NCBI GenBank assembly: GCA_945923475.1
Contig: CAMELE010000001.1
Location: 1-35,874 of the forward strand
Direction: 5' to 3'
Source of the DNA: an uncultured Mollicutes bacterium
GTDB lineage: Bacteria; Bacillota_I; Bacilli_A; Acholeplasmatales; Anaeroplasmataceae
Length of the DNA: 35,874 nucleotides
A program made the position numbers and the translations under genes. Below are positions 1 to 35,874 of this stretch, piece after piece (positions within the stretch are counted from its first letter, which is position 1; every line of letters begins with the position of its first letter). The notes under the pieces are model-generated. The model ran no database searches, had not been told where the DNA came from, and worked only from the letters and a program-made list of their open reading frames with translations.

Positions 1-60
1 GGATCAGGATCAGGATCAGGATCAGGATCAGGATCAGGATCAGGATCAGGATCAGGATCA
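1..60. repeat. (GGATCA)x10 perfect hexanucleotide tandem repeat, inside the CDS above
   Basis: Direct reading of positions 1-60. Confidence 0.95.
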
Positions 61-317
61 GTCCGAACAGTGCCCTCATCTCTGTATGCAGTATGCCAAC
101 TACCAGCTGTATAAAACTCTATTAAAGCAACGTAAGAGTATCGTGTATTAGGAGTTAACCCAGTAATTAAAACGAAAGGCGTTCCAGTAGTAGAACTACC
201 TTCATACTCTTCACCATCCAATAGTACACTTATTTTTCTACTAACATTGTCATTGCTTAAGCCAGAACCGGTAAACCTTAAAGTATAGGCAGTTGAAGTA
301 ATGTCTATAGAAGCCAT
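1..317 (-). CDS. 5'-partial structural-like protein with C-proximal (Asp-Pro)n linker; runs off the window start
   Basis: ATG at 315-317 (minus) preceded by AGGAGGAAATTAA RBS. Open frame to position 1. The (GGATCA)10 at 1-60 encodes DPDPDP... in this frame. Confidence 0.55.
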   Translation of the reverse strand, partial: MASIDITSTAYTLRFTGSGLSNDNVSRKISVLLDGEEYEGSSTTGTPFVLITGLTPNTRYSYVALIEFYTAGSWHTAYRDEGTVRTDPDPDPDPDPDPDPDPDPD

Positions 318-835
318 TTAATTTCCTCCTTTTATCTTAAAAATTTCTAAAAGCATTTTTGAATTGCGGTTTTCGGTCCTTGTGCTTGATGCCGGTCGGA
401 CCACATTAACTGCTCCTATTTAAGCAAACAAAAATGCTCTTAAATTTTGTCATCATGTTCTTTTACTCCGCAAACGCTAACCCGCAGGTTGCCTTACGCT
501 TCCTTCCACCATCAAAGAACAATCAAACTCCATTTAAGAGCATTTCCTCGGTTTGTTTTCAGTATTCAATTTGGTTAGATTTAAATAGGAAATCTTACTT
601 ATTCCGCACCGATCAACATTAAAATTAACAATAGTGCCAAATCACCTTTAATATAAATATTCCTTACCTATTCTTAATCACTCTTTCGTTGTGGTTAACG
701 TCTTTTCTTCAGCCTGTTAGGAAAAGAAACCTATCGTTTTAAATAAACAACGCCGTCGCCATCTACGACCTTGCTACTTACTCAGGTACGATAAGCAGTT
801 TTTGCGATTACTATAAAGTATACTGCCAAATACTT

Positions 836-925
836 TGGTCGGAGATGAGGGAATCGAACCCACTCGAGCGACTAAGCGCACCGGTTTTACAGACCGGGGT
901 GTCTACCTTATCACGTTAATCTCCG
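836..925 (-). tRNA. tRNA-Tyr (anticodon GTA), class II with long variable arm, CCA encoded
   Basis: Hand fold of the reverse complement. Acceptor CGGAGAT/ATCTCCG. Anticodon stem CCGGT/ACCGG with loop CTGTAAA. T-arm GTGGG-TTCGATT-CCCTC, then A + CCA. Confidence 0.75.
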
Positions 926-1207
926 AAATATATTTCTTATAATCTTTAATAAAACGCCAATAATCTTCTCGATTTTATTTTGAGGGTTTTAATTAGGTTA
1001 ACCCACAACCTCCGATAGTGTGTCTACTGGACCAAGGAAATACCCGATCGCCGTATTTCGCTCTTTAAAAGATGGACGCTTCTAATCCTACTTCCTATCG
1101 TATAAAAGGACTTATCAATGACTTTTATACATATTGCCTTTATTACCTTTATAAACAAATTAGCATTACCCAGTGCTACCGCGAGGAGGTTTTGTTTTTA
1201 GCACCGC

Positions 1208-1294
1208 AGCCCCGCTGGGATTCGAACCCAGAACGACTCCTTCAAAGGGAAAACGGTTTTAGAGACCGCCGTGTTAACCGTTACACTACGGGGC
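1208..1294 (-). tRNA. amber suppressor tRNA (anticodon CTA, reads UAG); class-II-like long variable arm
   Basis: Reverse complement gives D-arm TAGTGTAACGGTTAACAC, anticodon stem GCGGT/ACCGT, loop CTCTAAA (U33, anticodon CUA, A37), ~20-nt variable region, T-arm CTGGG-TTCGAAT-CCCAG. Acceptor GCCCCGT/GCGGGGC carries a 1-nt register irregularity. Confidence 0.75.
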
Positions 1295-1299
1295 AATAA

Positions 1300-2055
1300 T
1301 TATATTAAATCCCACTCTTCATCAGAATAAGAATTAATATCTCTTTTTGTTGAGGGAAGACTATATCCTCTACACCATTTACGGATAGTGTTATCATTAA
1401 CTCCAAACTTTTTACCTAAAGAAGTAAAAGTCTATCCACGAATTAAATTTTTTAATTCATTTCTATCTGGTCGAGCTACTTTTCTATCTTTTAAATGATT
1501 ACAAGCACTACAACGAATACTTTTGTTATCAGATAATTCTTTTCCACAATCACAACAGTATCGTTTTTTTCTACGGTTATTTCTTAAAGGATAAGTATAT
1601 CCTTCTAATCGACGACTTTTACCGTGATTTATTGTAGAAATAACATCTTGCCCTACATTAAACTATTTTGCTATATTTCCTTGAGAAATATTAGAATTTT
1701 GTAATAAATCATAAATCTCTAATAATTGTTGTTTAGAAATTTTAGACTAACTATTACAATTATTTTGTCCACCAGTTGTTTCATTATAACCATTAAAATA
1801 AGTATCAAATAACTAAATATAATACTTTTCCTTTTGGTCTAATTCTTTTTGAGAACATTCTTCTAAAATCTCCCAAGTAAAACTATCTAATCCATATTTT
1901 CTAAAAGCTCTACATAAAGTTTTTTCATATTCTTCAGAATTAGGATTAAATGCTCTGCTTTTTTCTTTAGTCCATCTATTTTCAATATTGATAGACTATC
2001 CAATATAAGAATGATTATTTACTTTATTTGTAATTTTATAAATTCCACAACTCAT
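1300..2055 (-). CDS. GIY-YIG homing endonuclease (I-TevI-like, C-terminal zinc finger plus HTH), 251 aa, with five in-frame TAG codons
   Basis: Manual minus-strand translation: MSCGIYKITNKVNNHSYIG*SINIENRW...RYCCDCGKELSDNKSIRCSACNHL...GVNDNTIRKWCRGYSLP. One TAG falls in the canonical YIG-Q-S motif. 756 nt, an exact multiple of 3, ends TAA. Absent from the standard-code ORF track. Confidence 0.8.
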
Positions 2056-2142
2056 TAAACTACCTTCTTTCTTTTTCTATTATATATAAAAATTAAAAGA
2101 AGATAATAATAAAGATTCGACCTCGAAATTGAATTTTTTTAT

Positions 2143-2265
2143 TAATTCAACTTACGGAGTTTTCGCTTCATCTTATTAATGAGGCGCTGATTCATAACTT
2201 CACTATGGGAATACAACTTCGCAATGCGATTTTCATAATGCTCTTTAGTGCGATAAATCATAATT
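2143..2265 (-). CDS. small hypothetical protein (40 aa, basic)
   Basis: AAGGAG RBS 8 nt before the ATG. Followed on the minus strand by the inverted repeat TTGAATT...AATTCAA plus T-run, terminator-like, at ~2100-2140. Confidence 0.35.
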
Positions 2266-2390
2266 TTTCTCCTTAAATTGAATTTATGATCCAGAGAGGG
2301 TTATCTGCGTCATCTAGACCCAATTTTTATTCATTATATATTCTTTCAGAGTAGCAAATTCTTAATTAAATATATAACTTAGCAGAACTC

Positions 2391-2490
2391 TGGTGGCACG
2401 GCCGGCTGGACTCGAACCAGCAGATGCAGGAGTCAGGGCTCAAAAGTTGGACTTGCACCAACATTCTCGGTTTTATAGGACCGGAAGCCT
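2391..2490 (-). tRNA. tRNA-like element: T-arm GCTGG-TTCGAGT-CCAGC and acceptor 3' strand + CCA are clear; 5' half not confidently folded (possible Leu-CAA-like loop); may be degenerate
   Basis: Reverse complement ends ...GCTGGTTCGAGTCCAGCCGGCCGTGCCACCA. No complementary 5' acceptor strand found upstream even allowing G-U pairs. Confidence 0.3.
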
Positions 2491-2840
2491 ACTAACAGAA
2501 CTTATATAATACTACTTAACCCCGTCATATTATATAACCCATTTAACTGATTTTGAGAAAGTCCTGTGCCTTACCATTTTGGCGACGGCCGTATAAACAA
2601 GACACCAAAGAATTTCAATCAATTCATTTCATCTATTTGTCGATTAATTCTCTCTTACCCCAAACAGACTACACCTTCAACAGGCAATCAAAAATTATTT
2701 GTAAAACAATATCTCTGTATCTTCTGTTATAGAAAATTCGCAGTTTGTGGTGTCTTTGATATATTTAAGACGCGAACGCCGTGCTCAACCATTACACTAA
2801 TTACAGCTGATTATTGGAATCGAACCAATCCTGCGTTCGG

Positions 2841-2916
2841 TGGTACGGGATGAGGGACTCGAACCCACGACCTCCTGAATGTAAATCAGATGCGCTACCA
2901 GCTGCGCTAATCCCGT
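2841..2916 (-). tRNA. tRNA-Val (anticodon TAC), CCA encoded
   Basis: Acceptor ACGGGAT/ATCCCGT, D-arm GCGC-AGCTGGTA-GCGC, anticodon stem TCTGA/TCAGG with loop TTTACAT, T-arm GTGGG-TTCGAGT-CCCTC (U50-U64), A73 + CCA. Confidence 0.8.
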
Positions 2917-2925
2917 ATAAGCAAC

Positions 2926-3129
2926 TCAATTAATGAAAGTTGCTACAAAATCCTTTTCGAGCATATACATGGGAGCAGAAGCAAAACCGCCATCATCAAT
3001 CTTACAATACAGAATAATATTTTCTGCATTGGGATTGGAAGCACGAGTAATTGCTTTTACAAGCTCCTTATTATCAATGGAATTATAATAGCAACCAAAA
3101 TCAATAGAAGTCTTTTTCATTTTTTTCAA
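2926..3129 (-). CDS. hypothetical protein (67 aa)
   Basis: ORF track. The promoter/leader cassette sits immediately upstream (3130-3190). Confidence 0.6.
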   Translation of the reverse strand: MKKMKKTSIDFGCYYNSIDNKELVKAITRASNPNAENIILYCKIDDGGFASAPMYMLEKDFVATFIN

Positions 3130-3153
3130 TTCCTTTCTTAACTTTCTATATAT

Positions 3154-3182
3154 ATTATATTATATTTTTTATAAAAAATCAA
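3154..3182 (-). promoter_or_regulatory. sigma70-like promoter, minus-strand TTGATT-N17-TATAAT, one copy of the repeated promoter/leader cassette
   Basis: Minus-strand reading: -35 TTGATT (plus aatcaa 3177-3182), 17-nt spacer, -10 TATAAT (plus attata 3154-3159), then leader ATATATAGAAAGTTAAGAAAGGA and the ATG. Confidence 0.6.
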
Positions 3183-3213
3183 AAAAGTTATTTCAAACTA
3201 GACACATTAGAAA

Positions 3214-3290
3214 CATAATTTTAAGTTATGTGCGTTAACCAATTTCGCCAAAACCCCAATTGGAGTTTACAGGATTTGAACCTGTATACC
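3214..3290 (-). tRNA. apparently circularly permuted tRNA-Leu(UAA)-like unit: [variable region + T-arm + acceptor 3' strand + A] - ATT - [acceptor 5' strand + D-arm + anticodon arm]
   Basis: Minus-strand reading GGTAT ACAGG-TTCAAAT-CCTGT AAACTCC A | ATT | GGGGTTT T G GCG-AAATTGGTTAA-CGC A CATAA-CTTAAAA-TTATG. The acceptor halves pair 7/7 with one G-U. Only ~37 nt precede the T-arm and no T-arm follows the anticodon arm, so a normal gene order is impossible. Confidence 0.45.
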
Positions 3291-3322
3291 TTTCTAATGA
3301 AAGAATTGCTGTATGTGTCTTA

Positions 3323-3350
3323 TGGTCCGAGTGAGACGACTTGAACGTCC
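3323..3350 (-). tRNA. orphan tRNA 3' fragment (T-arm GGACG-TTCAAGT-CGTCT + CACTCGG + A + CCA) with no 5' half
   Basis: Only 35 nt separate it from the 3' end of the upstream tRNA-Pro. No complementary 5' acceptor strand found. Confidence 0.35.
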
Positions 3351-3385
3351 GGCTGTCAGTTCAAATCAAACTAAACAGCGCTTCG

Positions 3386-3459
3386 TGGTAGAAGACGTGG
3401 GATTCGAACCCCTATTCAAGCTCCCAAAGCTAGCGTGTTACCATTACACTACATCCTCT
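3386..3459 (-). tRNA. tRNA-Pro (anticodon TGG), CCA encoded
   Basis: D-arm TAGTGTAATGGTAACACG, anticodon stem CTAGC/GCTTG (one mismatch) with loop TTTGGGA (G37). T-arm GGGG-TTCGAAT-CCC. Acceptor pairs with G-U wobbles; +/-1 register ambiguity. Confidence 0.65.
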
Positions 3460-3469
3460 ATATTAAGCC

Positions 3470-3982
3470 TTATTTCAAAGGCTCTAATTTAAACTCTTCG
3501 GTTAAACGATATAAATGTAAAGAAATTTTACGATGACAATTAGGACACAAAATACATAAATTATTTGGATCATTATTGTCATGGTTTTCATCTTTATGAT
3601 GAACTTCTAAAATGCGTTTTTCTTCATCATAGCCGCATACAGCACATTTATGTTCATATAAATCAAAAGCAGTTTGACGATAATTATTTCCTTTAAAAGC
3701 AAAATGATTTTCGCCACTTTTAAATAAGGTATTATTCATACCATTAGCACAACTTCTACTACAATAAACATTTCCAGTAATAGAACGCTTTAATTCTGAA
3801 TTTCTTTTCCAAACTTCTTTTCCACAATTCGCACAATGACATAATGTGCTTCCTTTATGACTGCGACATTCAGATGAACAATAAAATGCTGAATTCTCTT
3901 TTAATTTAGCATTATATCGCTTTAATTCAATCTCATATTCTTTATTACATACTACACATTTCACTTTTACCATTGTCGGCAT
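3470..3982 (-). CDS. HNH homing endonuclease, standard code, about 170 aa
   Basis: ORF track 3470..4045. HNH motif EVHHKDENHDNNDPNNLCILCPNCH plus several CxxC zinc-finger pairs. Start refined to the ATG preceded by AAAGGAG (MPTMVKVKC...); ATGs at 4000 or 4045 are alternatives. Confidence 0.8.
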   Translation of the reverse strand: MPTMVKVKCVVCNKEYEIELKRYNAKLKENSAFYCSSECRSHKGSTLCHCANCGKEVWKRNSELKRSITGNVYCSRSCANGMNNTLFKSGENHFAFKGNNYRQTAFDLYEHKCAVCGYDEEKRILEVHHKDENHDNNDPNNLCILCPNCHRKISLHLYRLTEEFKLEPLK

Positions 3983-4096
3983 ATAACCAACTCCTTTCAT
4001 TATTATATGAAAGTTAGGTAAGAATGATTGTTCTCGAAAGACCAAAATCTGTCCAAAAGATTATGTGAACCCGATCTAGCGATCGAGCGATCGCAA

Positions 4097-4173
4097 TGGT
4101 TGTCTGGGAGGGACTCGAACCCTCGATCTCCCGATTATCAGTCGGACGCTCTAACCAACTGAGCTACCAAACA
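4097..4173 (-). tRNA. tRNA-Ile (anticodon GAT), CCA encoded
   Basis: Acceptor TGTTTGG/CCAGACA, D-arm GCTC-AGTTGGTTA-GAGC, anticodon stem TCCGA/TCGGG with loop CTGATAA, T-arm GAGGG-TTCGAGT-CCCTC. Confidence 0.8.
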
Positions 4174-4380
4174 TTATTTATTTTGAGAAAGAAGTAAAAG
4201 AACTTTTTCATCTTGATAATCCGGAAGACCAATTTCGTAGAAAATTTCTGCGATATAATAATCAGTTCTTCCATCTCTTTTGGACAAATAATTACAAAGA
4301 ATTTCAGCATTTTCTTTGAATTTGAAATCTATGGGAAAATACAAAGGACTATTTTGAATTGCAACACGATAACAAAGCAT
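4174..4380 (-). CDS. hypothetical protein (68 aa)
   Basis: ORF track. AAGGAG RBS upstream of the ATG at 4380. Confidence 0.55.
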   Translation of the reverse strand: MLCYRVAIQNSPLYFPIDFKFKENAEILCNYLSKRDGRTDYYIAEIFYEIGLPDYQDEKVLLLLSQNK

Positions 4381-4397
4381 AGTATTTCTCCTTATTA

Positions 4398-4488
4398 GAA
4401 CAAGACACCATTGATTTACGGCGTTCTACCATTGAACTAATCCCCTATATAGTGGCAGGGGATGAAAGGAATCGAACCTACACTTCCG
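4398..4488 (-). tRNA. second permuted-like tRNA unit: T-arm + acceptor 3' strand ATCCCCT + G + CCA, then CTATAT, then a perfectly complementary acceptor 5' strand AGGGGAT + canonical D-arm. Anticodon arm irregular (6-nt loop)
   Basis: Minus-strand reading ...GTAGG-TTCGATT-CCTTT C ATCCCCT G CCA CTATAT AGGGGAT TA GTTC-AATGGTA-GAAC G CCGTAAATCAATGG.... Too little room upstream of the T-arm for a 5' half. The downstream half runs into the RBS of the 4174..4380 gene. Confidence 0.35.
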
Positions 4489-4575
4489 GCTTGGTATGCA
4501 ATCAAAATTGCTGTTAATGTCTTTAACTTATATATTTATTATATAATATTTTTTTATAAATGTCAAAAAGTTTTA

Positions 4576-5433
4576 TTAAGTAGTTAAAAACGCATTATAA
4601 CCTTTTGATTTTAAATCATTAATTACTTTTATAGCATTTGCTTTGACAGAAAAAGCACCAACTTGAACTTTATAATACTTGCCAATCTTACGAATATAAG
4701 CATTTTTATAACCTGCTCCAATAGTATCAGGTAATGCTTTAATTTTCAATAAGAAAGCGTCAGCATTAGATTTAGATCCAAAAGCACCAAGTTGAACGCG
4801 ATAAATAATTTGCGGTTTAAGGTAAATAGCCACTACATTATCGACAGCGCGATTGCCCCAATCTTTAGTGATACAAGCTCCATTATGAAGAACTTTCGTG
4901 CTACCACCGCCATCAAGGTTAATTGCATAATCAACTTTTAATGCTAAAAGTAAATTCTACATTTCTGTAAATGCCATGCCTGGCTTTTCAATAGCAATTA
5001 AATAAATATTAAATTTATTATATGCTAATACCGTTCTACGAGCTTTATAATTTAACTCTTTGGCATAAGTAATTTGAGTTTTTTTGCCAGCCTTAATTAA
5101 TACTGGATAACCGCTAACAAAATCTTCAAACTTTTCTGTTCCAATTATACCGTATTTCAATTCACCATTAATGATACCAAAGCCTTCTTTATAAGAAGAA
5201 GTGGAATTAATGATTATACCATTATCCATATAATTAAAACAAGTGCTGCCATTATCCATGCTAAAGAAACCACCATTAGTTAAAATAGTAGGTTTAACCG
5301 CGCAACTATCATAGTATTGCTTTAAAGTCTAACGCGGTTGAGCGCATAAGGCCATATCTAACTTACTAATTTCTTCTTTTGGAATTTCAATAATTTTTAC
5401 ATATGAATAATTGCTTGGAGAATATATCTTCAT
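4576..5433 (-). CDS. phosphodiester-glycosidase-like (DUF2233-type) protein with two C-terminal SPOR-like peptidoglycan-binding repeats; 285 aa with two in-frame TAG codons
   Basis: With TAG as sense, track ORFs 4957..5259 and 4576..4833 join upstream sequence into one 858-nt frame. Hallmarks: ILTNGGFF and NLDGGGST (DUF2233-like), YRVQLGAFGSKSNA and YKVQVGAFSVKANA (SPOR-like). ATG at 5433 after AAGGAAGG. Confidence 0.65.
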
Positions 5434-5493
5434 CAAATCACCTTCCTTAATATTTTTAAGGTTTCAATGACTTTTATTAATGAAATATACCCT

Positions 5494-5570
5494 TGGCATC
5501 CCCGGAGCGATTCGAACGCCCGACACAAGGATTAGAAATCCTTTGTTCTATCCAACTGAACTACGGGGAC
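5494..5570 (-). tRNA. tRNA-Arg (anticodon TCT), CCA encoded
   Basis: Acceptor GTCCCCG/CGGGGAT, D-arm GTTC-AGTTGGATA-GAAC, anticodon stem AAGGA/TCCTT with loop TTTCTAA, T-arm GGGCG-TTCGAAT-CGCTC. Confidence 0.8.
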
Positions 5571-5686
5571 AAATTCGCTACAAGACTCTTCATTCTTCTT
5601 AATCCCATATTAAGCGCTTATTGCAAGCAAAAAAGTTGCTGTATGAGTCTTTATTTAGTTAAGAAAGGAAATACCATGATAATGGT

Positions 5687-5775
5687 AGGGCGAGGGAGAC
5701 TCGAACTCTCCATTGAGCGATTTGGCCTGTGAATTAGGCCTTGAACCTAAATCTTCGTAGTACTACCGTTATTTT
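5687..5775 (-). tRNA. tRNA-like element, fold unresolved (alternative T-arms GAGAG-TTCGAGT-CTCCC and TTAGG-TTCAAGG-CCTAA; CCA ends present)
   Basis: Hand folding gives two competing structures. No single canonical cloverleaf could be built. Confidence 0.3.
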
Positions 5776-5842
5776 ACCATTTAAACTACTCACAGATAAG
5801 TCGCCTAGTCTAGCCTTTGACTTACCACCCCAGATCGGCGAG

Positions 5843-6361
5843 TCAAGAAACCCGCGATTTCAACCAATAAACTGACATTCGTTCATTAGGCTGATTTGTC
5901 ATTTCACCTTTTGGCCCTAAGATTTCAGGATAAGGCCAAACATATTCATTAGCAGTCTTTTCATCAGGAAATTCAATTTCTGCATAGCAAAATTTCCCAT
6001 CAACTTCACTAATTTCAATCAAACGATTAGGATTGTAAATATCTTCAACCATGTAATAATCCTTAATAATAGGATTATAACCTTCATGTCGAGTTTTCTT
6101 AATCATTTCATAGAAATCTGAGGAAATTGGCGTTTCAATTTCTTCACGAGAAAGACCATCACCATATTTATAAGTCATCTTATAATCAACTTGATTGGTT
6201 TTAAGATTAATGGCTTTCCGCACTCGAATTTCTTCAAGCACTTTACCATCATTATCAAAGTCAATCATAAGATAGATTTGTTCAATTTTCTTATGACGGA
6301 CACTTTTTTCCTTCATCCAAGAAGGAATATTTTTAATATCAAACTTACGTTCGATTTCCAT
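5843..6361 (-). CDS. CYTH-domain (triphosphate-tunnel metalloenzyme / CyaB-like) protein, 172 aa
   Basis: N-terminal MEIERKF... is the CYTH EXEXK signature. Ends in TGA. Confidence 0.65.
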   Translation of the reverse strand: MEIERKFDIKNIPSWMKEKSVRHKKIEQIYLMIDFDNDGKVLEEIRVRKAINLKTNQVDYKMTYKYGDGLSREEIETPISSDFYEMIKKTRHEGYNPIIKDYYMVEDIYNPNRLIEISEVDGKFCYAEIEFPDEKTANEYVWPYPEILGPKGEMTNQPNERMSVYWLKSRVS

Positions 6362-6500
6362 TTTTATACTCCTTTAACTCTTGGAAATAAGTAAGAATCT
6401 ACTCATTTTTATCAATAATCTCTGGATTATAATTATAATACTTCATAGAAGCAATCTAATCTTTCCATTCAGCGATTAACTAATCTACGGTATAATTCAT
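6345..6500 (-). CDS. small hypothetical protein (51 aa) with three in-frame TAG codons
   Basis: GGTGAAATT then ATG. Continuous only if TAG is sense. Overlaps the CYTH gene start in the +1 frame. Confidence 0.3.
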
Positions 6501-6519
6501 AATTTCACCTACTTACTAT

Positions 6520-6595
6520 TGGGGTGACTGGCGGACTTCGAATCCGCGACATTCTGAGCCACAATCAGACGCTCTACCAACTGAGCTACAGCCAC
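6520..6595 (-). tRNA. tRNA-His (anticodon GTG), C73 + CCA encoded
   Basis: Acceptor GTGGCTG/CAGTCAC, D-arm GCTC-AGTTGGTA-GAGC, anticodon stem TCTGA/TCAGA with loop TTGTGGC, T-arm GCGGA-TTCGAAG-TCCGC. Confidence 0.8.
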
Positions 6596-6596
6596 A

Positions 6597-6684
6597 TGGT
6601 GCTTTTGATGAGACTCGAACTCATATGAACTTTACGTCCACTAGATTCTTAGTCTAGCATGTATACCAATTCCATCACAAAAGC
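6597..6684 (-). tRNA. class II tRNA-Leu (anticodon read as AAG; A34 is unusual), CCA encoded, abuts tRNA-His
   Basis: Acceptor GCTTTTG/CAAAAGC (perfect). Anticodon stem CTAGA/TCTAG with loop CTAAGAA. 16-nt variable arm. T-arm ATGAG-TTCGAGT-CTCAT. Confidence 0.6.
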
Positions 6685-6736
6685 ATTTTCTTATTTTTTA
6701 TATATTTATTATACAATATTTTTTTTATAAAGTCAA

Positions 6737-6780
6737 AAGGGGCCGATGTAAAGTATATTTACTTTACATCGGCCGTCGCG
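6737..6780 (-). terminator. rho-independent terminator hairpin for the AAA+ gene upstream
   Basis: GGCCGATGTAAAGTA-TATT-TACTTTACATCGGCC perfect inverted repeat, followed (minus-strand reading) by a T-rich run and the promoter cassette at ~6690-6735. Confidence 0.6.
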
Positions 6781-7920
6781 TTAATAAAGATACTGTTCAA
6801 TAGTATTTGCGACCTTAGTTAAAACAACAGACTTAATCACGCGCTCATTTTTAGCCTTTTCGATAGCTTCCTTACGCTTTTCTACATTGCTGATCGTCCA
6901 AAAGTCATCAGGATCAATGTAAATTTCAACCTTTTTCGGATCGGCCGTAATCATACCCTTTTCAATCTTAATTGAATCAGGAGTCAAGGCATAACGAATA
7001 GTCTTACTATCTGAGGCATAACCATCATACCATCTTTTATGATCGGCATTAGGATTGCTAAACAAATTAACTGAAACACCATAGGTATTATACACATCAC
7101 CATTTACCGTAGTAATAGTGATATTGAAACGAACATTGGAAGTTTGAGAAATATTAAGATCTTCAAGAGTTTCTGCCACACCATAACCCTGATTAAGTTC
7201 AAAAGCAATCGCGCGAAGATAATCATAAGTCATATTGGTAGTACGAGAAAAATTCACAATATCCTTAATACCACTCGCATATTTAGGCTTAACCTTATCA
7301 GTAAGATATTCTACAATCTCTTCCTCTGTTGGATAAGTAATCTTAAAATGATAATGAAAACGACCAGGCCGATTCAATAGATAAGTGCTAAGTCGATCAA
7401 CTTCATTACAAGTAATAACGAAAAGCTTCTTACCATTATCAAGACCATCAAAAAGAGAAAGCATTTCCTCCTGCGGAGAGGGGCCCGCATGGTCGTCAGA
7501 GTTATTAGAGAAATTCTTTTCAAACTCATCAAAAATAATTACGACTTCTTGCTCGATACTGGAAATAAAATCTGCGATACCGGGCACATAAGTATTAGCC
7601 AAGAGAACAGGATATCCGCTTTCAATAGCGTGATGAGAAAGAATACGAGCAAACAATGACTTGCCAATACCCTTCTGACCACTTAAAATAACACCAAGAT
7701 TACGGTCTGAATACTTAAAAGAATTAAGCACCTTATTGACTTTAACTTCGTGATTACCATAAATTTTTTCCTCATTGACCGCAAGGTCTGGACGAGAAGA
7801 AAGATAAAAACCTGCCATTTTATTAAAGCAGATTTCAAAAGACATAAGCGGAAGTCGCTTATAAGTCTTAACGTCCTCGCCATAAATCTGATAGCGAGAA
7901 CCAGCATTTACAATATTCAT
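6781..7920 (-). CDS. AAA+ family ATPase, about 379 aa
   Basis: Walker A GQKGIGKS, Walker B VVIIFDEFE. Start refined to MNIVNAG, preceded by AAGAGGA. The longer track ORF start overlaps tRNA-Ser. Confidence 0.8.
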   Translation of the reverse strand: MNIVNAGSRYQIYGEDVKTYKRLPLMSFEICFNKMAGFYLSSRPDLAVNEEKIYGNHEVKVNKVLNSFKYSDRNLGVILSGQKGIGKSLFARILSHHAIESGYPVLLANTYVPGIADFISSIEQEVVIIFDEFEKNFSNNSDDHAGPSPQEEMLSLFDGLDNGKKLFVITCNEVDRLSTYLLNRPGRFHYHFKITYPTEEEIVEYLTDKVKPKYASGIKDIVNFSRTTNMTYDYLRAIAFELNQGYGVAETLEDLNISQTSNVRFNITITTVNGDVYNTYGVSVNLFSNPNADHKRWYDGYASDSKTIRYALTPDSIKIEKGMITADPKKVEIYIDPDDFWTISNVEKRKEAIEKAKNERVIKSVVLTKVANTIEQYLY

Positions 7921-7947
7921 ACTTAATCCTCTTAATTTAAAATTTAA

Positions 7948-8035
7948 TGGCGGAGCCACCGCGAGTCGAACGCGGACTACCTATAAAGGTAGGAAAGCTT
8001 AGCAGGCTTTTGTGATACCATTACACCATAGCTCC
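7948..8035 (-). tRNA. tRNA-Ser (anticodon GCT), class II, G73 + CCA encoded
   Basis: Acceptor GGAGCTA/TGGCTCC. Anticodon stem AAAGC/GCTTT with loop CTGCTAA. Long variable arm CCTACC...GGTAG. T-arm CCGCG-TTCGACT-CGCGG. Confidence 0.8.
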
Positions 8036-8039
8036 ATTA

Positions 8040-8273
8040 TTTACACCTATATATGATTAGTTTATGCTTAATACTATATCCACAATAACTATGCTAAGTG
8101 CGATAATTACTAAAAATATAATACTTTCTATCGGATTTAATATTACCAAATAAATTTAAAACTCTCAATCCCTGTTTATAATGAGAAGTTTTATTATTTA
8201 CTTGATAATTAGCCCAATCAAGAATTTCTTGACCGCTAAAACAAGGATTTTTATAACTTAAAATATTTTTCAT
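8040..8273 (-). CDS. small hypothetical protein: 77 aa if the internal TAG is read as sense, 58 aa if TAG terminates
   Basis: GGAGG RBS then ATG at 8273. One in-frame TAG. The extended frame ends TAA next to tRNA-Ser. Confidence 0.4.
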
Positions 8274-8682
8274 ATTCTACCTCCTCTGCTTTTCTGGACT
8301 TGGAACCAGCCTATGGTAGCATTAGGTAGGCGACCGCACTTATCGTTCGCTAGGACAAAATTCACGCTCATCGCCAAAAATCAAATCATCAACATCTTTA
8401 AACATATCAGACAATCCTCCTTTTTTATTTAATTTTATGAAACAAAATAGAGAGTAGAAAAACAATTCATTTCTATGGAAGTGAGAGAAAACAACAATCT
8501 ATATATCAAACGAAAGGGGAAATCAAACAGAAAGATAAGTAAGAAAATGAACTAGATGTAAAAGACTCTCTCTATTGTATAGTCTTTTATTTCTATATAT
8601 TTAAATATATAGAAGAGTAGCCTTTCTAACAGGCATTCCAACAGCCTCGAGCAGCAAAGAGGTTCCTCATTTGTTGGTCTTT

Positions 8683-8758
8683 TGGTGGGCGGAGACAGAA
8701 TCGAACTGCCGACGCTAGGATCTTCAATCCTACGCTCTACCAGCTGAGCTATCCGCCC
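8683..8758 (-). tRNA. tRNA-Phe (anticodon GAA), CCA encoded
   Basis: Acceptor GGGCGGA/TCCGCCC (perfect), D-arm GCTC-AGCTGGTA-GAGC, anticodon stem TAGGA/TCCTA with loop TTGAAGA, T-arm GGCAG-TTCGATT-CTGTC. Confidence 0.85.
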
Positions 8759-8972
8759 ATAATATTTATATTGCTACGATTCCCGATTCTCCACGTAGTC
8801 ATTCTTCCTTTAAAATTTACTAAAAGAATGTGATATTTTATTTATCGTCCTACATCAACAATATAAATAGAACAAGACGCTATAAACAATCCTAAGCATA
8901 TGTATTTCGTACATTGATGTTTTAAAGTTTGCTGTTAGCGCCTTAATTATTCAAAAAGAAAGGAAAGATAAA

Positions 8973-9176
8973 TTATGCGTTTGCGGGTTCCGCGTTCTTC
9001 GGTCTGCGGAACTTTACATAACGCTCACCATCATGTCGGGACATCCAAATGATTGTGCCATCCTTAAAATGGAAATCATAAGTAAAATCCTTATCCTGTT
9101 CATCAATCTGATGGCAAAAGCCCTTACCGTACTTCTTAGAATAAACCTTGTCGCCGGGCTTAAATTTAAACTTCAT
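8973..9176 (-). CDS. hypothetical protein (67 aa)
   Basis: ORF track. Confidence 0.5.
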   Translation of the reverse strand: MKFKFKPGDKVYSKKYGKGFCHQIDEQDKDFTYDFHFKDGTIIWMSRHDGERYVKFRRPKNAEPANA

Positions 9177-9221
9177 TTAGATATCTCCTTTTGGATTATT
9201 TTAATTTACAAGACACAAATG

Positions 9222-9294
9222 AAATATTTGTTGGAATTGAACCAACTACAGTTTGTTTAACAGACAAATGCTCTACCAAATGAGCTAAAATATT
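9222..9294 (-). tRNA. tRNA-Asn (anticodon GTT) with an unusually AT-rich acceptor stem
   Basis: Acceptor AATATTT/AAATATT, D-arm GCTC-ATTTGGTA-GAGC, anticodon stem TTTGT/ACAAA with loop CTGTTAA, T-arm GTTGG-TTCAATT-CCAAC. Confidence 0.7.
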
Positions 9295-9370
9295 TTCAAT
9301 AGAAAATGATTGCTGTGTGTGTCTTTATTACTGTGATACCTCTTATTAAGAGGGCTTACGGCGTTACGCC

Positions 9371-10215: not shown

Positions 10216-10217
10216 AA

Positions 10218-10533: not shown

Positions 10534-10536
10534 ATA

Positions 10537-10758: not shown

Positions 10759-10762
10759 ATAT

Positions 10763-26573: not shown

Positions 26574-26661
26574 TTCCTTTCTTAACTTTATATATATATT
26601 ATATTATATTTTTTTATAAAAATAAAATAAGGACTTATGAATTAACATAAGTCCTTATTAT

Positions 26662-27286: not shown

Positions 27287-27353
27287 ATATCCTCCTCCTT
27301 AATCTAAGTCATCGAACAAAATAGATAAAATGCCAAGAGCGCAAAAACAAAGA

Positions 27354-27533
27354 ATTATTACTTTAAGCATAGAAGACTGACTGAATGAAACCGACAAACA
27401 GGCAAAGCAACATGCCCATACCGCAGTAATAATACTTCTCATTGAGAGGCATAGTATCATCATTCAGTAGATCCATATACATAAAGCCGAAAAATACTAA
27501 TATAATAAATAGCATAATAATCATTTCTCCCAT
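27354..27533 (-). CDS. small membrane protein (59 aa)
   Basis: MGEMIIMLFIILVFFGFMYMDLLNDDTMPLNEKYYYCGMGMLLCLFVGFIQSVFYA. Below the track cutoff. Confidence 0.4.
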
Positions 27534-28263: not shown

Positions 28264-29163
28264 TCACTCCTTTTGTAAATATTTATTACCAAGTAATAAG
28301 TCTAAAGTAATGTTATCACGTTCCCAATAAGGGATCCTTACTAAAGAAATATTATGAGATAAAGCATAATCATTTTTTATTTTATCTCGTTTTTGTGTAG
28401 CTTCTAATTCTCCCCAAGTAGGAACTTCCATAAAATGTTGTTCTCCGTCAAATTCAATTAATCTATTATAATCAGGTAAATAAAAGTCATATCTTAAATT
28501 ACCTAAATTTTTATATTTATATTCTTTAATATAAGTAATATTATTTTCAGATAAAATATTACTTATATGGTATTCTCCAAGAGACGTTTTTAAACAACCA
28601 CAAGAAATTTTTCTTCCACTTAATAAAGATTTACTTGAAGTATCACATTCATTACCACAATCACATCGACAATGCCAAATAATACGGTTATTTTTTCTTT
28701 CAGGTTGTTCAAATAATACAGTTAATTTACCAAAACGCTAACCAATTAAATCTTTTTTAGTTAAATTAGCTACCATTTCTTTATGTAAACACCCACAAGA
28801 CTATGTATTTCCAGTGGTTAAATCGTTAGTTGCATAATAAACAATATTACCACATTCGCATTGGCATTCCCAAATAATACGGTTATCTTTTCTTTTACCA
28901 GAATCTTTAATAACAGTTAAACGTCCAAATTTTTGGCCTACTAAATCTTTTTTGGTATTATTACTTGCTACTTCTTTCCTATAACAACCGCAAGATTTAG
29001 TGCTACCATTTCTTAACCTATTTAAACTAATACTTTTTATATTACCACAATCACACTAACATTTCCAATAAGTAGAACTATGTGTTTTAGTTTTTTCTAC
29101 ATCTATTTCTAAAGCAGTTAGACGTCCAAATTTCTAACCACTTATATCCTTATATTTTCCCAT
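28264..29163 (-). CDS. HNH-type homing endonuclease-like protein: three tandem zinc-finger modules (G-Q-[KR]-F-G-[RK]-L-T ... W-x-C-x-C-x-C-G-N ... S-C-G-C) plus a C-terminal PD-(D/E)XK-like (Vsr/DUF559-like) domain; 299 aa with four in-frame TAG codons
   Basis: Minus-strand translation MGKYKDISG*KFGRLTAL...YWKC*CDCGN...; second module DLVGQKFGRLTVI...IIWECQCECGN uses CAA at the same positions; third DLIG*RFGKLTVL...IIWHCRCDCGN. C-terminal YDFYLPDYNRLIEFDGEQHF. 900 nt, an exact multiple of 3, ends TGA. Confidence 0.75.
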
Positions 29164-30154: not shown

Positions 30155-30400
30155 TTAAAAGATTTCAATCGCGCCTTCAAAAAGATTGAGAAACTCTTCG
30201 GCAGTTTCAGAAGACACGAGAATGCTTGTTGAAGCATTGAATTGCCAATCAATGTAAATAAACGAGAGTGGTCCACCGCCCGCTTCCGCAATTTCCTTTG
30301 CATAAGTTTCAGAATTCGCTGGTCGAATTTCGACGGCATTAATATTGTTAGTATTAATAAGATATTTAAAACCGCGGAAGTTGTGTAAAATTACAATCAT
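30155..30400 (-). CDS. hypothetical protein (81 aa)
   Basis: ORF track. The overlapping 30148..30339 ORF is in another frame and rejected. Confidence 0.55.
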   Translation of the reverse strand: MIVILHNFRGFKYLINTNNINAVEIRPANSETYAKEIAEAGGGPLSFIYIDWQFNASTSILVSSETAEEFLNLFEGAIEIF

Positions 30401-30666
30401 TTGAATGCCTCCTCAGAAATAAAATTTTTGAGTTGTCTTAGAATTGCGGTACCATTAGAATACCTATCATCAAAGACATACTCATAATGAGATTTATCAT
30501 TCATATAAAAGTCAAGTTTTGTTTCAAAAGTTTCAGCAGAAATACTGTCATCATCTGAATTATCCTTGGTAGTATGAGAAACAAGAACTGTGACGATTTC
30601 ATTTACATTGAAGAAAACGCTGTCGCCATTAGACATTTTTAAATAAATTAAATCACCTTTGTTCAT
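30397..30666 (-). CDS. hypothetical protein (89 aa)
   Basis: ORF track. Confidence 0.6.
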   Translation of the reverse strand: MNKGDLIYLKMSNGDSVFFNVNEIVTVLVSHTTKDNSDDDSISAETFETKLDFYMNDKSHYEYVFDDRYSNGTAILRQLKNFISEEAFK

Positions 30667-30667
30667 T

Positions 30668-31267
30668 TTATTTCTCCACGATATAATCTTTCGCTACATC
30701 CGTTCCTTCTGGAATATAAAGATAAGCTCGCGTTGACTTAGAGCAGACAAAGAACCACTCTCTCCAATCGCCATAACGCGGGAGACGCTTCTCAATGTGC
30801 GGAACCTGATTAGAGTAAACAATTACTGTGTCATTCACGGGATGGGTCTCAGTACTCATAATGCCATCAATGCTGAGTGTAAGATAAGTATAATAAACAC
30901 TCTCACCTTCAAAGGCACGGTAAGTATAGATATTGCCATCGTTATCTATACTTGTTAACTCTTGGGCTTCCGTAATCATATAATCATACTTAGAATAGTC
31001 ATCAACAGCCGAAGACATCATAACTCCGCCAAACATGCTTACGGCGAGGTAAAGACAAACGCCGATCCAAAAGGCAGGAATAATTTGACGGAGAATATCA
31101 ACGCGGTCGCGATGAGACCAATTGCGGAAATGCTTAGCCTTAGGATCGGAAAGAGTGCTATAATACCTATAACTACGATAAGCAGAATGAATGGCGAAAA
31201 TCAGAAAAATAATTAAGGTCGGTAGAACAAATCCGCCCACCAGCGTTTTCAAGAAGAAGATAAACAT
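30668..31267 (-). CDS. membrane protein (199 aa, 2-3 TM)
   Basis: MFIFFLKTLVGGFVLPTLIIFLIFAI...IPAFWIGVCLYLAVSMFGGVM. Confidence 0.65.
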   Translation of the reverse strand: MFIFFLKTLVGGFVLPTLIIFLIFAIHSAYRSYRYYSTLSDPKAKHFRNWSHRDRVDILRQIIPAFWIGVCLYLAVSMFGGVMMSSAVDDYSKYDYMITEAQELTSIDNDGNIYTYRAFEGESVYYTYLTLSIDGIMSTETHPVNDTVIVYSNQVPHIEKRLPRYGDWREWFFVCSKSTRAYLYIPEGTDVAKDYIVEK

Positions 31268-31390: not shown

Positions 31391-32119
31391 TTAGTCGATA
31401 TTATTTCGATTTTTTGACGGAATTAGATCGTCAATAGTTAAATCTTCATATTGTAAATATGAGATACGAATTAATGGTATATTATGTTCTTTGCACCATT
31501 TATTTTTATATTCGTCTCTATCCTAAATTTTTTTAATGTCTTCTCCCCATCCTCCATCTGGTTCTGTATGTTGACGGCCATCATATTCTATAAGATATTT
31601 ATTATCAACATAAAAATCAAACCGCAAAGGATAGTTAGTTTCAGGATTACGACAATCTTTAAATTTTTTTTCCATTTCAAAAGGGATATTATTCTCAGTT
31701 AATAATTGAGAAATTTTTAATTCTCCAATTGAAATTTTTAAACATCCACAAGAATTTACTTTATGAGTTCGTAATTCATAAGGTCTTACGTAGACAATGT
31801 TTCCGCAATCACACTAACACTATATTTTATAAGTGCCACTTGGTGATCTATGATTAAAGTCTCTTTTTATTGCGGTTAATTTACCGAAGCGATGACCTAT
31901 AATATCATCACTTTTATGACGATTCATTCGTTCTTCTTGAATTAAACATCCGCAAGACTTACATCCGCCCGAAGTTAAAAGATTTGTATAAGCGAAATGC
32001 TCTTTACCACAATCACAACGGCATTTCCAAACAATATTACCATGTTTACGTTCAGAAGTTTCTTCTATAACAGTTAGCTTTCCAAAACGCTAACCAATTA
32101 AATTTTGTTTTTTTGCCAT
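31391..32119 (-). CDS. HNH-type homing endonuclease-like protein (paralog of 28264..29163; two zinc-finger modules plus a PD-(D/E)XK-like C-terminus), 242 aa with four in-frame TAG codons
   Basis: MAKKQNLIG*RFGKLTVI...VWKCRCDCGK...CKSCGC...IIGHRFGKLTAI...KI*C*CDCGN...NSCGCL...RFDFYVDNKYLIEYDGRQH...KKI*DRDEYK. 729 nt, an exact multiple of 3, ends TAA. Confidence 0.75.
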
Positions 32120-33846: not shown

Positions 33847-34404
33847 TTGACTAAAAAGGAATTGATAACTTTTTTCCACGACAAATACTATTATAAGAAA
33901 GGTAGTATGAGAGCGGTTAAAGATATTGAATAGATTGCTGAAAAGGAACATTATCAAGTTATAAAAAATAGTCCTGATAATTATGATTTATATGAAACAG
34001 GAGCGGTATTAGATTTTACTAAACCTATTAAAATAAATAGAGAGATCCCGCCTTTGGCTTCACATAAAGCATATAATGGAGTTCCGCTTTATTTATTTAC
34101 ATACACATTCGCTTATTATATTAACTTTGAGTTATGGTGTTATGTAATGAATAAAAAGAATGGAGATTATATTCATTTCAATGATATTTTAAATACAGAT
34201 ATTTAGTATTGTAAAGATATAGAAGATATTGTATTTAATTTTGACTTATTAGTTCATCATGGATACCTAAGAGAGCGTAAAGATTGTCTCGAATTTTATG
34301 CTTATCCGATTAAAGATGGAATTCAACTTCCATTAGATTATATTTTTCAATCGGAAGATAATAAAAAAGTATCAAGATTGGCTCCATTTAAATATTTAGA
34401 ATAA
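33847..34404 (+). CDS. hypothetical protein (185 aa) with two in-frame TAG codons; first gene of the plus-strand block
   Basis: AAAAGGAGGAGGA RBS, then TTG 8 nt later (an in-frame ATG at 33907 is an alternative). Open through two TAGs to TAA at 34402-34404. No standard-code ORF exists here. Confidence 0.5.
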
Positions 34405-34433
34405 TATTTTAATTGCTTAAAGGAGTCGCTAAT

Positions 34434-34610
34434 ATGCCAAATGCTAATAAAATTATATATTCATTAAGAATATATTTAGAATTAGAAAAGAAAGGAATAT
34501 ATCCAATAACAACAACCGCAAATCCGCGGAAGCCTAACTTTATGTGTTGGATATATGAAAAGACTCCGGAGTTAGTTTAGGCTCTGGATGAATTAATGGG
34601 CAAGAAATAA
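34434..34610 (+). CDS. small DUF5659-like protein (58 aa) with one in-frame TAG
   Basis: AAAGGAG RBS. MPNANKIIYSLRIYLELEKKGIYPI...NFMCWIYEKTPELV*ALDELMGKK. The family assignment is from memory of the motif. Confidence 0.45.
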
Positions 34611-35041
34611 TGAGCCTATTTAAGATTCATAAAGAAGTTTTATAGAGTGGTAATTTTACTTCAATAAACACTCCTACGTTGGGTTAGGCTACTGGGAGTT
34701 TAACATTGAATGGTTTAAGATTATATTTATATTTAGCTGGTAATACTAATAATTTTGTTTGGACTATGAATCCGACCGCCTATGCCAATTGGTTAGGAAA
34801 AGATTATTCAAAGGCGAGTGAAGCAAGGGCAGTCCGCAAGGCTATTGATGCTGGCATAAATGATTTAAAGAATAATAACTATTTAGTCGAAACCGCGGAA
34901 GGAAAATATGATTTTTATGATAATTGTAATGATTTTCCGGAACAAAAAGTTCCGAAAGGATAGGTTGTTATTCAAAAATAGACAATTAGTAATAGTAAAG
35001 TGGAACAAAAAGTTCCGAAAGAAGACAAATTTGAGTTTTAA
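34610..35041 (+). CDS. putative replication-initiator / replisome-organizer-like protein (winged-helix N-terminal domain); 143 aa if the three in-frame TAGs are read through, or ending at 34963 if the third TAG terminates
   Basis: ATG overlaps the preceding stop as TAATG. LNGLRLYLYLAGNTNNFVWTM...LGKDYSKASEARAVRKAIDAGINDL resembles DnaD / phage replisome-organizer wHTH domains. Track ORF 34706..34963 is the TAG-free core. The iteron cluster lies at its 3' end. Confidence 0.5.
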
Positions 35042-35176
35042 CATTAAATTCGGAACCGTTAGTTCCATTCATTTAAAATGTGATGAATTATTAGGGACTG
35101 CGGAACCGTTAGTTCCAAAATGCCCCTTATGTTTGGAACCGTTAGTTCCGAATTGCCTATATTTTCGGAACAAAAA
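34939..35176. promoter_or_regulatory. cluster of six 15-bp palindromes GGAAC-N5-GTTCC (three with AAAAA spacer, three with CGTTA spacer): iteron- or operator-like, putative replication origin
   Basis: GGAACAAAAAGTTCC at ~34939, 35005 and 35162. GGAACCGTTAGTTCC at ~35055, 35103 and 35136. Confidence 0.6.
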
Positions 35177-35180
35177 GTTC

Positions 35181-35222
35181 CTATTAATATATATATAATA
35201 GATAATATTTAATATATATCGG
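35181..35222. other. AT-rich tract directly after the iterons, candidate DNA-unwinding element
   Basis: attaatatatatataatagataatatttaatatatatc, essentially 100% A+T. Confidence 0.4.
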
Positions 35223-35265
35223 CTGGGTAATTCAGGGGCAGTAATGAGAGTAAAAGGAGTAAAAT

Positions 35266-35502
35266 ATGAGTTATAGTTATGAAGAAATAAGAGGCGGAAA
35301 AGGCAATCCTTCAATAGTAAGATTTGTAAGAGGAACGCAAGAACAGTTTGATAAGATGATAGATAAAACAAATATGATAAAGCCTGATCTATATATGAAA
35401 GATAATACTATTTATTTTGTTGTTCCAGACGATACAAAACCAGTAAAGGTAGCATTTGATAATGATAGATCTGAGTCAATAGAAGAAAATCCATTTCTTT
35501 AG
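35266..35502 (+). CDS. hypothetical protein (78 aa)
   Basis: ORF track. AAAAGGAG RBS. Confidence 0.55.
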   Translation: MSYSYEEIRGGKGNPSIVRFVRGTQEQFDKMIDKTNMIKPDLYMKDNTIYFVVPDDTKPVKVAFDNDRSESIEENPFL

Positions 35503-35669
35503 GAATTCATTTGATTTATAATAAATAATATATTATAATATAAATAATAAAAGAAAGAAATATAATTTTGAAGTGAAAACCGGGGTAGGTTATTTCTGTG
35601 TAAAGCAGGGGTATTTATTCCGGGGAACGATTCAAAAAATGAAATGAAAGTAAGGATTTGAAAACTGAA

Positions 35670-35874
35670 ATGAAATTTACAACTGAAGAACTGAAGAAGA
35701 ATAATGGAGAAAAGGTAGGCGTTTTCCGCAATTGGAATGTAATTGCTACTACTAAGAAAGAGTTTTTTAATAGGGAGAATACGCAAGGCGCATACCTTAT
35801 TTGGGATGACTGTAATAAATTAGTTTTTAATGGTAAGGTTCTTGGTCGAATTACTGAGCAAGGTAAGATAGAAT
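35670..35874 (+). CDS. 3'-partial hypothetical protein; runs off the window end
   Basis: ATG at 35670. Open frame MKFTTEELKKNNGEKVGVFRNWNVIATTKKEFFNRENTQGAYLIWDDCNKLVFNGKVLGRITEQGKIE... to the window end. Confidence 0.4.
   Translation, partial: MKFTTEELKKNNGEKVGVFRNWNVIATTKKEFFNRENTQGAYLIWDDCNKLVFNGKVLGRITEQGKIE

Follow-up and report, generated by a model that had tools for sequence, protein, structure and literature searches.

The reassignment of the amber codon TAG to glutamine (Gln) with the help of a phage-encoded tRNA is already well documented. Gut phages that use this code (genetic code 15) include the crAss-like, Lak, Jade, Sapphire, Agate, Garnet, Amethyst, and Topaz clades, in which 26-71% of the genes are recoded, with structural and lysis genes prominent among them; Agate also recodes a homing endonuclease, there with TGA (Borges et al., bioRxiv 10.1101/2021.08.26.457843). 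Recoding in crAss-like phages was validated by proteomics, using liquid chromatography-tandem mass spectrometry (LC-MS/MS) of TAG-spanning peptides (Peters et al., PMC9523058). A CUA suppressor tRNA encoded by the phage itself is found in ~40% of the published TAG-recoded genomes. A further example is phAss-1, the proposed Phassvirus, which has a 136-kb genome with many tRNAs, TAG interruptions in 28% of its open reading frames (ORFs), and tRNA-Sup-CTA genes (Babkin et al. 2023, PMC10607447). Here we describe a phage lineage that is an additional case of this recoding, based on a DNA stretch of 35,874 nucleotides (contig CAMELE010000001.1, positions 1 to 35,874; referred to as the window). TAG lies inside 11 genuine coding frames of the window and is never a terminator there. 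UAG is very probably decoded as Gln by a tRNA with the anticodon CUA (tRNA-CUA), which the phage encodes in an array of 21 tRNA genes.

The window resembles the code-15 phages described by Borges et al. in many respects. It carries in-frame TAGs opposite Gln as well as a phage tRNA-CUA, the GC content is low (35% over the 35.9 kb), and recoding is partial. Those phages recode lysis-related and structural genes and a homing endonuclease; the recoded genes here include homing endonucleases, an endolysin-like protein, and, in a relative, tail-fibre-like genes. Those phages come from the human gut under a non-westernised diet, and relatives of the window likewise come from Hadza/Nepal assemblies (the source label of one relative's contig contains 'Hadza...Nepal'). 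A genome of ~190 kb falls within the range of the larger clades. The window differs from these phages in that the recoded fraction is lower (11 of ~60 window genes) and no RF2 or aminoacyl-tRNA synthetase 'code-change module' is seen in it. Its suppressor tRNA has a long variable region, a trait that searchable papers do not mention for recoded phages. Likenesses to phAss-1 include the large size of a gut phage, the many tRNAs, TAG at conserved Gln positions, and the lack of a dedicated synthetase (PMC10607447). There was no sign of kinship to phAss-1 when two window proteins, the NAGPA-SPOR protein and a 534-amino acid (aa) core protein, were compared by tblastn with GenBank phages, a collection whose inclusion of phAss-1 is unconfirmed; no full-length relative was found. 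Of the defining features of code-15 phages, in-frame TAGs in intact genes, TAG opposite Gln, the lack of TAG terminators, and a phage tRNA-CUA are seen in this lineage.

How is TAG used in the window? Part of the answer comes from stop codons. A score-based code-15 gene set consists of 58 genes, of which 48 end in TAA, 10 in TGA, and none in TAG, extending a check of ~50 genes in an initial annotation of this DNA that had also found no TAG stop. TAG makes up ~18% of the stop trinucleotides (six reading frames summed), so ~10 TAG stops would be expected in 58 genes, and the probability of observing none is ~1e-5. Stop codons of related contigs behave in the same way. Among ~420 orthologous stop positions belonging to 56 genes, there were 42 switches between TAA and TGA and no switch to TAG. 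This outcome would be very unlikely if TAG were a terminator, since one transition is enough to turn TAA into TAG. The comparison of translation tables 11 and 15, which the initial annotation had put forward as a check, also speaks for code 15. The coding fraction is 59% with code 11, 70% with code 15, and 58% with TGA as a sense codon in the score-based set, and 64%, 74%, and 66%, respectively, in a length-greedy set. ORFs that end in TAG in the code-11 sets are all fragments of the longer TAG-interrupted frames or of the ORF at 8037-8273(-). Raw six-frame ORF statistics did not separate code 15 from code 4 and were set aside. Length-greedy code-15 calling was replaced by the codon-usage score because it produced antisense artefacts on the plus strand (21558-22328, 25691-26098, and 26115-26585).

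The consequence of using the standard code can be seen in public databases, where the annotation of this lineage is broken. The NAGPA-SPOR gene, for example, is annotated by JGI/IMG as a 100-aa hypothetical protein at 4957-5259(-) (P0121, P0135, P0136). This product is the piece of a 285-aa gene that extends from an internal start to the TAG at codon 159.

The TAG-interrupted frames have the properties of genes. In eleven ORFs with coding-like codon usage, 31 TAGs but not a single TAA or TGA occur in frame. These ORFs lie on both strands, which agrees with the at least eleven frames originally reported. Codon usage, scored with a model trained on the long TAG-free genes of the window, stays coding on both sides of the TAGs. 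Further evidence comes from conserved domains that extend across TAGs, as had been claimed for the GIY-YIG genes and the DUF2233-SPOR protein. A 251-aa GIY-YIG homing endonuclease at 1300-2055(-) contains five TAGs (codons 20, 81, 103, 131, and 208), two of which are inside the Pfam GIY-YIG domain (residues 3-91). Its codon score is positive in most inter-TAG segments, and its paralogues show CAA, AAA, and other codons opposite TAG. A second homing endonuclease of this type (GIY-YIG/NUMOD1, 219 aa, 9371-10030(-)) contains four TAGs at codons 19, 89, 143, and 181; two of them again fall inside the GIY-YIG domain (residues 7-93), and every segment scores as coding. The NAGPA (DUF2233)-SPOR protein, which is endolysin-like and 285 aa long (4576-5433(-)), has TAGs at codons 35 and 159. 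Pfam places NAGPA at residues 52-205, spanning the TAG at codon 159, and SPOR at residues 212-285; the SPOR part matches PHROG endolysin entries.

Two additional homing endonucleases contain zinc-finger-like repeats. The first (299 aa, 28264-29163(-)) has three repeat modules and four TAGs (codons 10, 36, 121, and 142). As originally noticed, modules 1 and 3 carry TAG exactly where module 2 has CAA. With X standing for TAG, one motif reads GXKFGRLT and GXRFGKLT compared to GQKFGRLT with CAA, and the other reads WKCXCDCG compared to WECQCECG with CAA. Its paralogue (242 aa, 31391-32119(-)) has TAGs at codons 10, 100, 102, and 199, and paralogues show CAA or AAA opposite TAG. Both genes match PHROG 374, 559, and 9084 (HNH or homing endonuclease), with an E-value of 4e-60 for the first. 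They had been named HNH genes; the in-frame TAGs and the PHROG matches stand, but neither has a Pfam HNH domain. The only gene with that domain, at 3470-4045(-), is TAG-free.

Six further frames carry TAGs. A conserved 266-aa protein of unknown function at 15839-16639(-) has a single TAG at codon 35 with a positive coding score on both sides, and a 51-aa conserved gene at 6345-6500(-) has three TAGs (codons 7, 15, and 34) and a codon score of 16.9. The other four form a plus-strand cluster. The gene at 33847-34404(+), whose function is also unknown, has two TAGs (33931-33933 and 34204-34206) and scores as coding in all three segments. The small gene at 34413-34610(+) has one TAG (34578-34580) and ends in a TAA that shares sequence with the ATG of a 143-aa gene at 34610-35041(+) with TAGs at codons 12, 26, 118, and 124 and a positive score in all segments. 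The last, an 82-aa gene at 35266-35514(+), has its TAG (35500-35502) three codons ahead of a TGA stop. Codon usage supports the initial annotation of in-frame TAGs in 15839-16639 and in the three plus-strand genes at 33.8-35.0 kb. Some ORFs that it may have counted are not genes: 946-1158 and 35069-35494 have non-coding codon usage. These two ORFs were rejected as evidence, together with the N-terminal extensions of 30397-30822 and 20567-20974, which are non-coding in the same sense.

What amino acid does TAG stand for? Window genes were aligned codon by codon at the DNA level with orthologues in related contigs. In 15839-16639, the TAG at codon 35 is kept in 10 of 10 genomes, and at two other Gln columns, one or two genomes have TAG where most have CAG or CAA. 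One further column, in 20400-20579, alternates between CAG and TAG among relatives. Judging from these alignments, the CAG-to-TAG changes in both genes are recent. In 35266-35514, the TAG near the C-terminus is Gln in nine relatives (ENPFLQESI) and, conversely, the window Gln in RGTQEQFDKM is TAG in 11 of 11 relatives. The 51-aa gene 6345-6500 is kept in eight relatives; all three of its TAG sites are Gln in the relative L020, and the second is Gln in L019. The plus-strand cluster shows both conservation and turnover of TAGs. 33847-34404 has the same organization and the same TAGs in the closest relative, L037, homologues of 34413-34610 in L038-L045 have TAGs elsewhere in the same frame, and homologues of 34610-35041 in L043, L044, and L047 have in-frame TAGs at other positions.

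The NAGPA-SPOR gene was checked in 25 loci. Among the 20 more distant loci, 15 have CAA or CAG in place of the TAG at codon 159; in place of the TAG at codon 35, distant loci have CAG, CAA, GAA, or GAG. The SPOR motif RVQLGAF contains an invariant Gln, for which four loci of a sister clade use TAG and the other 22 use CAA or CAG. When 52 TAG-containing columns were tallied with BLOSUM62, Gln scored highest (Q 90.8), followed by E 48.5, K 48.1, S -7, Y -74, L -91, and W -135. Changes into TAG among close relatives come from CAG and never from AAG, GAG, or TCG, and individual TAGs are kept between genomes with 74-99% protein identity. By these comparisons, TAG is evolutionarily interchangeable with CAA and CAG; the lineage uses it as a Gln-equivalent sense codon. 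The relatives' DNA alignments, the residue tally, the stop switching, and the tRNA covariation described below bear out the central claim of the initial annotation that TAG is reassigned, probably to Gln.

The tRNA-CUA gene was located by ARAGORN at 1206-1295(-), slightly outside the bounds of 1208-1294 first given for it. The gene encodes no CCA. Its product was described at first simply as the cognate tRNA, but a length of 90 nucleotides (nt), a variable region of 21 nt, a U1-U72 mismatch, and G73 mean that it is no plain look-alike of tRNA-Gln. It scores 56.2 bits against the Rfam tRNA model (gathering score 29), and its minimum-free-energy fold is a cloverleaf in which the variable arm forms a stem of at most 3-4 base pairs (bp). 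The gene occupies a slot between tRNA-Val and tRNA-Tyr that is kept in 11 of 11 close relatives, and the occupant of the slot varies: it is 90 nt in the window and seven relatives, 73 nt in three relatives including the closest (e.g., 7688-7760 in L011), and 72 nt in one relative (6666-6737 in L020). The 73-nt class-I form and the other alleles look unrelated although the phages are nearly identical. In a sister clade of ~140-kb, TAG-recoded phages, a 91-nt tRNA-CUA (2930-3020 in L059) that is 87-89% identical to the window form sits elsewhere in that clade's tRNA array. There, L059 and L066 encode CCA right after G73, and the clade also encodes tRNA-Gln(UUG) and tRNA-Gln(CUG).

Evidence for selection on tRNA-CUA comes from covariation. 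When six distinct sequences were compared, each of 19 tested stem pairs proved to be Watson-Crick or GU throughout, compensatory changes were seen in 11 of them, and none of 500 shuffles was as good. The anticodon loop, CUCUAAA, is invariant. By this measure, tRNA-CUA is under selection for the cloverleaf and the anticodon. The 1:72 pair is U-U, U-C, or C-U in all five variants, and G73, G2:C71, and G10 are common to all of them; 3:70 is C:G or A:U, and position 38 is A. The identity set by which E. coli GlnRS recognizes tRNA-Gln consists of a weak or unpaired 1:72, G73, G2:C71, G10, U35, A37, G3:C70, and U38. tRNA-CUA agrees with this set in the weak 1:72, G73, G2:C71, G10, U35, and A37, and departs from it in lacking G3:C70, U38, and the short class-I variable loop. 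Amber suppressors of E. coli that insert Gln include supE, a tRNA-Gln with the anticodon CUA, and acceptor-end mutants of su+3 tRNA-Tyr that are mischarged with Gln. A weak 1:72 pair, G73, and U35 favor recognition by GlnRS, and su+3 tRNA-Tyr illustrates that a class-II-shaped tRNA can accept Gln. The window tRNA shares the CUA anticodon, the weak 1:72, and G73 with these suppressors. Unlike them, it is natural, phage-encoded, and conserved in two phage clades, with C:G or A:U instead of G:C at 3:70 and A instead of U at position 38.

New CAG-to-TAG changes are found both in genomes with the long tRNA-CUA and in genomes with the short one, and carriers of the 73-nt and 90-nt forms have TAG sites in common. 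Thus, both tRNA forms are tied to a Gln-equivalent TAG. When the long form was compared with the Tyr, Ser, Leu, and Gln tRNAs of the same phage to trace its origin, none stood out as a parent; identity to non-CUA tRNAs reached 0.73-0.76 at best. No mention of a long variable region in suppressor tRNAs of recoded phages was found in the searchable literature, and an empty search is not proof of novelty. It is conceivable, if doubtful, that the class-II-shaped tRNA-CUA is an undescribed Gln-accepting architecture, or that it inserts some other residue, such as Ser, in some strains. If the latter were true, UAG would not mean the same thing in phages that are nearly identical.

The tRNA arrays contain other unusual elements. 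A tRNA-like gene at 12913-12983(-) scores 46 bits against the Rfam tRNA model, has a 6-nt anticodon loop (CUUCAA), and is reported by ARAGORN without an anticodon ('tc'); it is kept in the relatives L013-L016, L019, and L021, where it is read as 'tt' or 'tc'. The sister clade has tRNAs with 8-nt anticodon loops and four-base 'anticodons' (tgtt and taaa; 3891-3965 and 9154-9227 in L059, and also in L061, L064, and L066), and its array holds a tmRNA with the tag peptide DNNYFDSHMAA. tRNA-SeC(tca) was called by ARAGORN in L019 and L021; this is likely a false positive and has no counterpart in the window. The homing endonucleases located among the tRNAs are polymorphic for presence: the HNH gene 3470-4045 was seen in none of the fetched loci, 9371-10030 in two related loci, which is consistent with a mobile element, and 1300-2055 in four.

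How would UAG be decoded? tRNA-CUA is encoded next to genes that need TAG decoding, and a host enzyme would charge it with Gln. This enzyme could be GlnRS, or a non-discriminating GluRS acting together with GatCAB. We infer such charging because the 1:72 mismatch, G73, G2:C71, G10, and U35 resemble the identity set of E. coli tRNA-Gln. If the host uses the standard code, tRNA-CUA must out-compete the host RF1. The ~50 TAG-free genes could then be translated at once, and the TAG-bearing genes would give full-length proteins only after the suppressor had built up, as in the 'code-switch' timing model. The late class in such a model would include the homing endonucleases, the NAGPA-SPOR protein, the plus-strand cluster, and the tail-fibre genes of a relative.

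Several points weigh against the reading of TAG as Gln supplied by tRNA-CUA, or against parts of it. That the inserted residue is Gln is deduced from alignments only. Charging specificity is not readable from the tRNA sequence because the class-II-like arm and G73 recall tRNA-Ser; a long class-II variable region together with G73 is also typical of bacterial tRNA-Ser. No release-factor, GlnRS, or other 'code-change' gene is present in the window. A standard-code host is presumed, and the assignment of the TAG-free and TAG-bearing classes to early and late expression is carried over from the timing model for other recoded phages. The 120 database homologues with Gln at both TAG sites of NAGPA-SPOR were set aside; this tally is partly circular because many of these proteins were translated with TAG as Gln, and only the DNA-level checks are independent. 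Two single-genome differences do not involve Gln codons. Codon 60 of 8037-8273(-) is TAG in the window and TGG (Trp) in nine relatives, with a weak codon-usage signal beyond the TAG, and a second TGG-to-TAG difference is present in L045 (ORF 27299-27463). These two singletons may fit nonsense mutation as well as a Trp-to-Gln change.

Such singletons resemble ordinary nonsense mutations, and four of the 11 TAG genes are homing endonucleases, which often decay and are patchy among the relatives. Both observations would suit an explanation in which TAG is a true stop, the interrupted frames are decaying pseudogenes, and tRNA-CUA is incidental or non-functional. However, the frames are interrupted by TAG alone and never by TAA or TGA, the coding signal persists past each TAG, and the TAGs are conserved across genomes and placed at conserved Gln sites, including the invariant SPOR Gln. 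In addition, no gene ends in TAG, stops of relatives never switch to it, and compensatory evolution of tRNA-CUA is strong, its anticodon being fixed. The NAGPA-SPOR loci, the stop switching, and the tRNA covariation effectively refute decay as an explanation, leaving it a probability close to nil. It is also highly improbable that TAG is read as a residue other than Gln, be it Ser, Leu, Tyr, Lys, Glu, Trp, or pyrrolysine. The 90-nt length, the 21-nt variable region, and G73 of the tRNA do recall tRNA-Ser, Lys and Glu come second in frequency among the residues opposite TAG, there are the two TGG/TAG alternations, and ARAGORN labels the tRNA Pyl. But the variable arm has a stem of at most 3-4 bp, the tally of 90.8 for Gln compares with 48 for Glu and Lys and with values below zero for Ser, Tyr, Leu, and Trp, and close relatives show changes to TAG from CAG but never from Lys, Glu, or Ser codons (AAG, GAG, TCG). 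The TAG sites common to genomes with 73-nt and 90-nt tRNAs, both of which have new CAG-to-TAG changes, also argue against another residue. A pyrrolysine system was rejected because the Pyl label derives from the anticodon alone and TAG aligns with Gln; Pfam scans of the 20 largest and the TAG-bearing window ORFs found no pyl genes (pylS, pylBCD).

A third explanation differs from the reading of TAG as a Gln codon in degree only. Reassignment would be incomplete: suppression would be leaky, UAG would still be a stop for the host RF1, truncated products would accompany full-length ones from each TAG gene, and TAG would act mainly as a translational attenuator. An RF1 antagonist or RF2 gene was not seen in the window, TAG is excluded from ~50 genes (0 of 131 Gln codons), as expected if it is costly to read, and published models assume competition with host termination. 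Genes with four or five TAGs, however, would yield next to no full-length protein without efficient suppression, and TAG makes up 39% of the Gln codons in its class, where it stands at essential conserved positions. We consider incomplete reassignment possible but unlikely.

The distribution of TAG in the window is uneven. The initial annotation saw TAG reassigned across the phage genome; TAG is recoded in the window, but it is confined to 11 of ~60 genes and absent from the other ~6,570 codons. In the AT-rich class, 27 of 70 Gln codons (39%) are TAG, compared to 0 of 131 in the other genes (Fisher p = 8e-15). When a nine-gene TAG-bearing set was compared with the other genes (6,574 codons), the TAG-bearing class had a GC content of 29.9% vs 37.1%, a GC3 of 18% vs 33%, and an NNG share of 16% vs 38%. 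TAG-bearing genes are nearly without CAG (3 CAG vs 40 CAA), whereas TAG-free genes favor it (72 CAG vs 59 CAA). Members of the TAG class are the four homing endonucleases, the NAGPA-SPOR gene, the 51-aa gene, 15839-16639, and all genes of the plus-strand cluster (33.8-35.5 kb). This split in composition points to a class of genes with its own evolution or expression, or to genes that circulate horizontally among recoded phages. Tail-fibre-like genes that contain five and two TAGs are present in the relative L011 just past the position of the window's left end. The left edge itself is variable: the window has an edge-truncated gene (1-317(-)) that begins at 317 and continues into a long repeat of the dipeptide Asp-Pro (...DPDPDPDPDP), and L011 has a different gene in its place, encoding a 507-aa tail-fibre-like protein.

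With little doubt, the window belongs to a human-gut phage that has a genome of ~190 kb and uses genetic code 15. The minus strand carries all of the 21 tRNA genes found by ARAGORN (836-12983) and nearly all of the window's protein genes. Besides the NAGPA (DUF2233)-SPOR protein and the homing endonucleases (two GIY-YIG, one HNH, and two with zinc-finger repeats), assigned functions include an AAA ATPase, an M28/M20-like peptidase, DUF5052, and a metallophosphoesterase; the majority of the genes are without an assignment, and no terminase is present in the window. The relative L127 encodes a 517-aa YcaO-domain protein (23-1576; Pfam E 9e-23) near the position of an unrelated 483-aa window protein without a Pfam match, so the YcaO annotation is not applicable to the window gene (13380-14831). 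Relatives of the 534-aa core protein (17318-18922) are 85-98% identical and lie on IMG/VR contigs of 97-197 kb, the largest being ~181-197 kb. Exact-protein look-ups placed close relatives of window proteins in human-gut assemblies, on contigs of up to ~199 kb; additional related loci were retrieved for the tRNA array and the right end of the window. The lineage has hundreds of database members with contigs to ~199 kb. Megablast and tblastn searches of core genes against the GenBank phage collection found no relatives, and tblastn with the NAGPA-SPOR protein found only SPOR-domain matches, none full-length. Hence the lineage is absent from the GenBank phage collection, while its type of recoding is already known. 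The SPOR-domain matches include Faecalibacterium phage endolysins, the only hint of a host, which would be a member of the Firmicutes. A profile scan of genome contigs with NAGPA-SPOR for bacterial homologues or host clues found nothing.

The lineage adds another large-phage lineage to the recoded set, and it needs annotation with table 15, since the standard code breaks its genes. The clean two-class pattern and the heavily recoded homing endonucleases bear on the proposal that a change of code times the expression of late and selfish genes. The unusual suppressor tRNA, together with its allelic replacement among near-identical phages, offers an accessible test case for orthogonal decoders built by phages.

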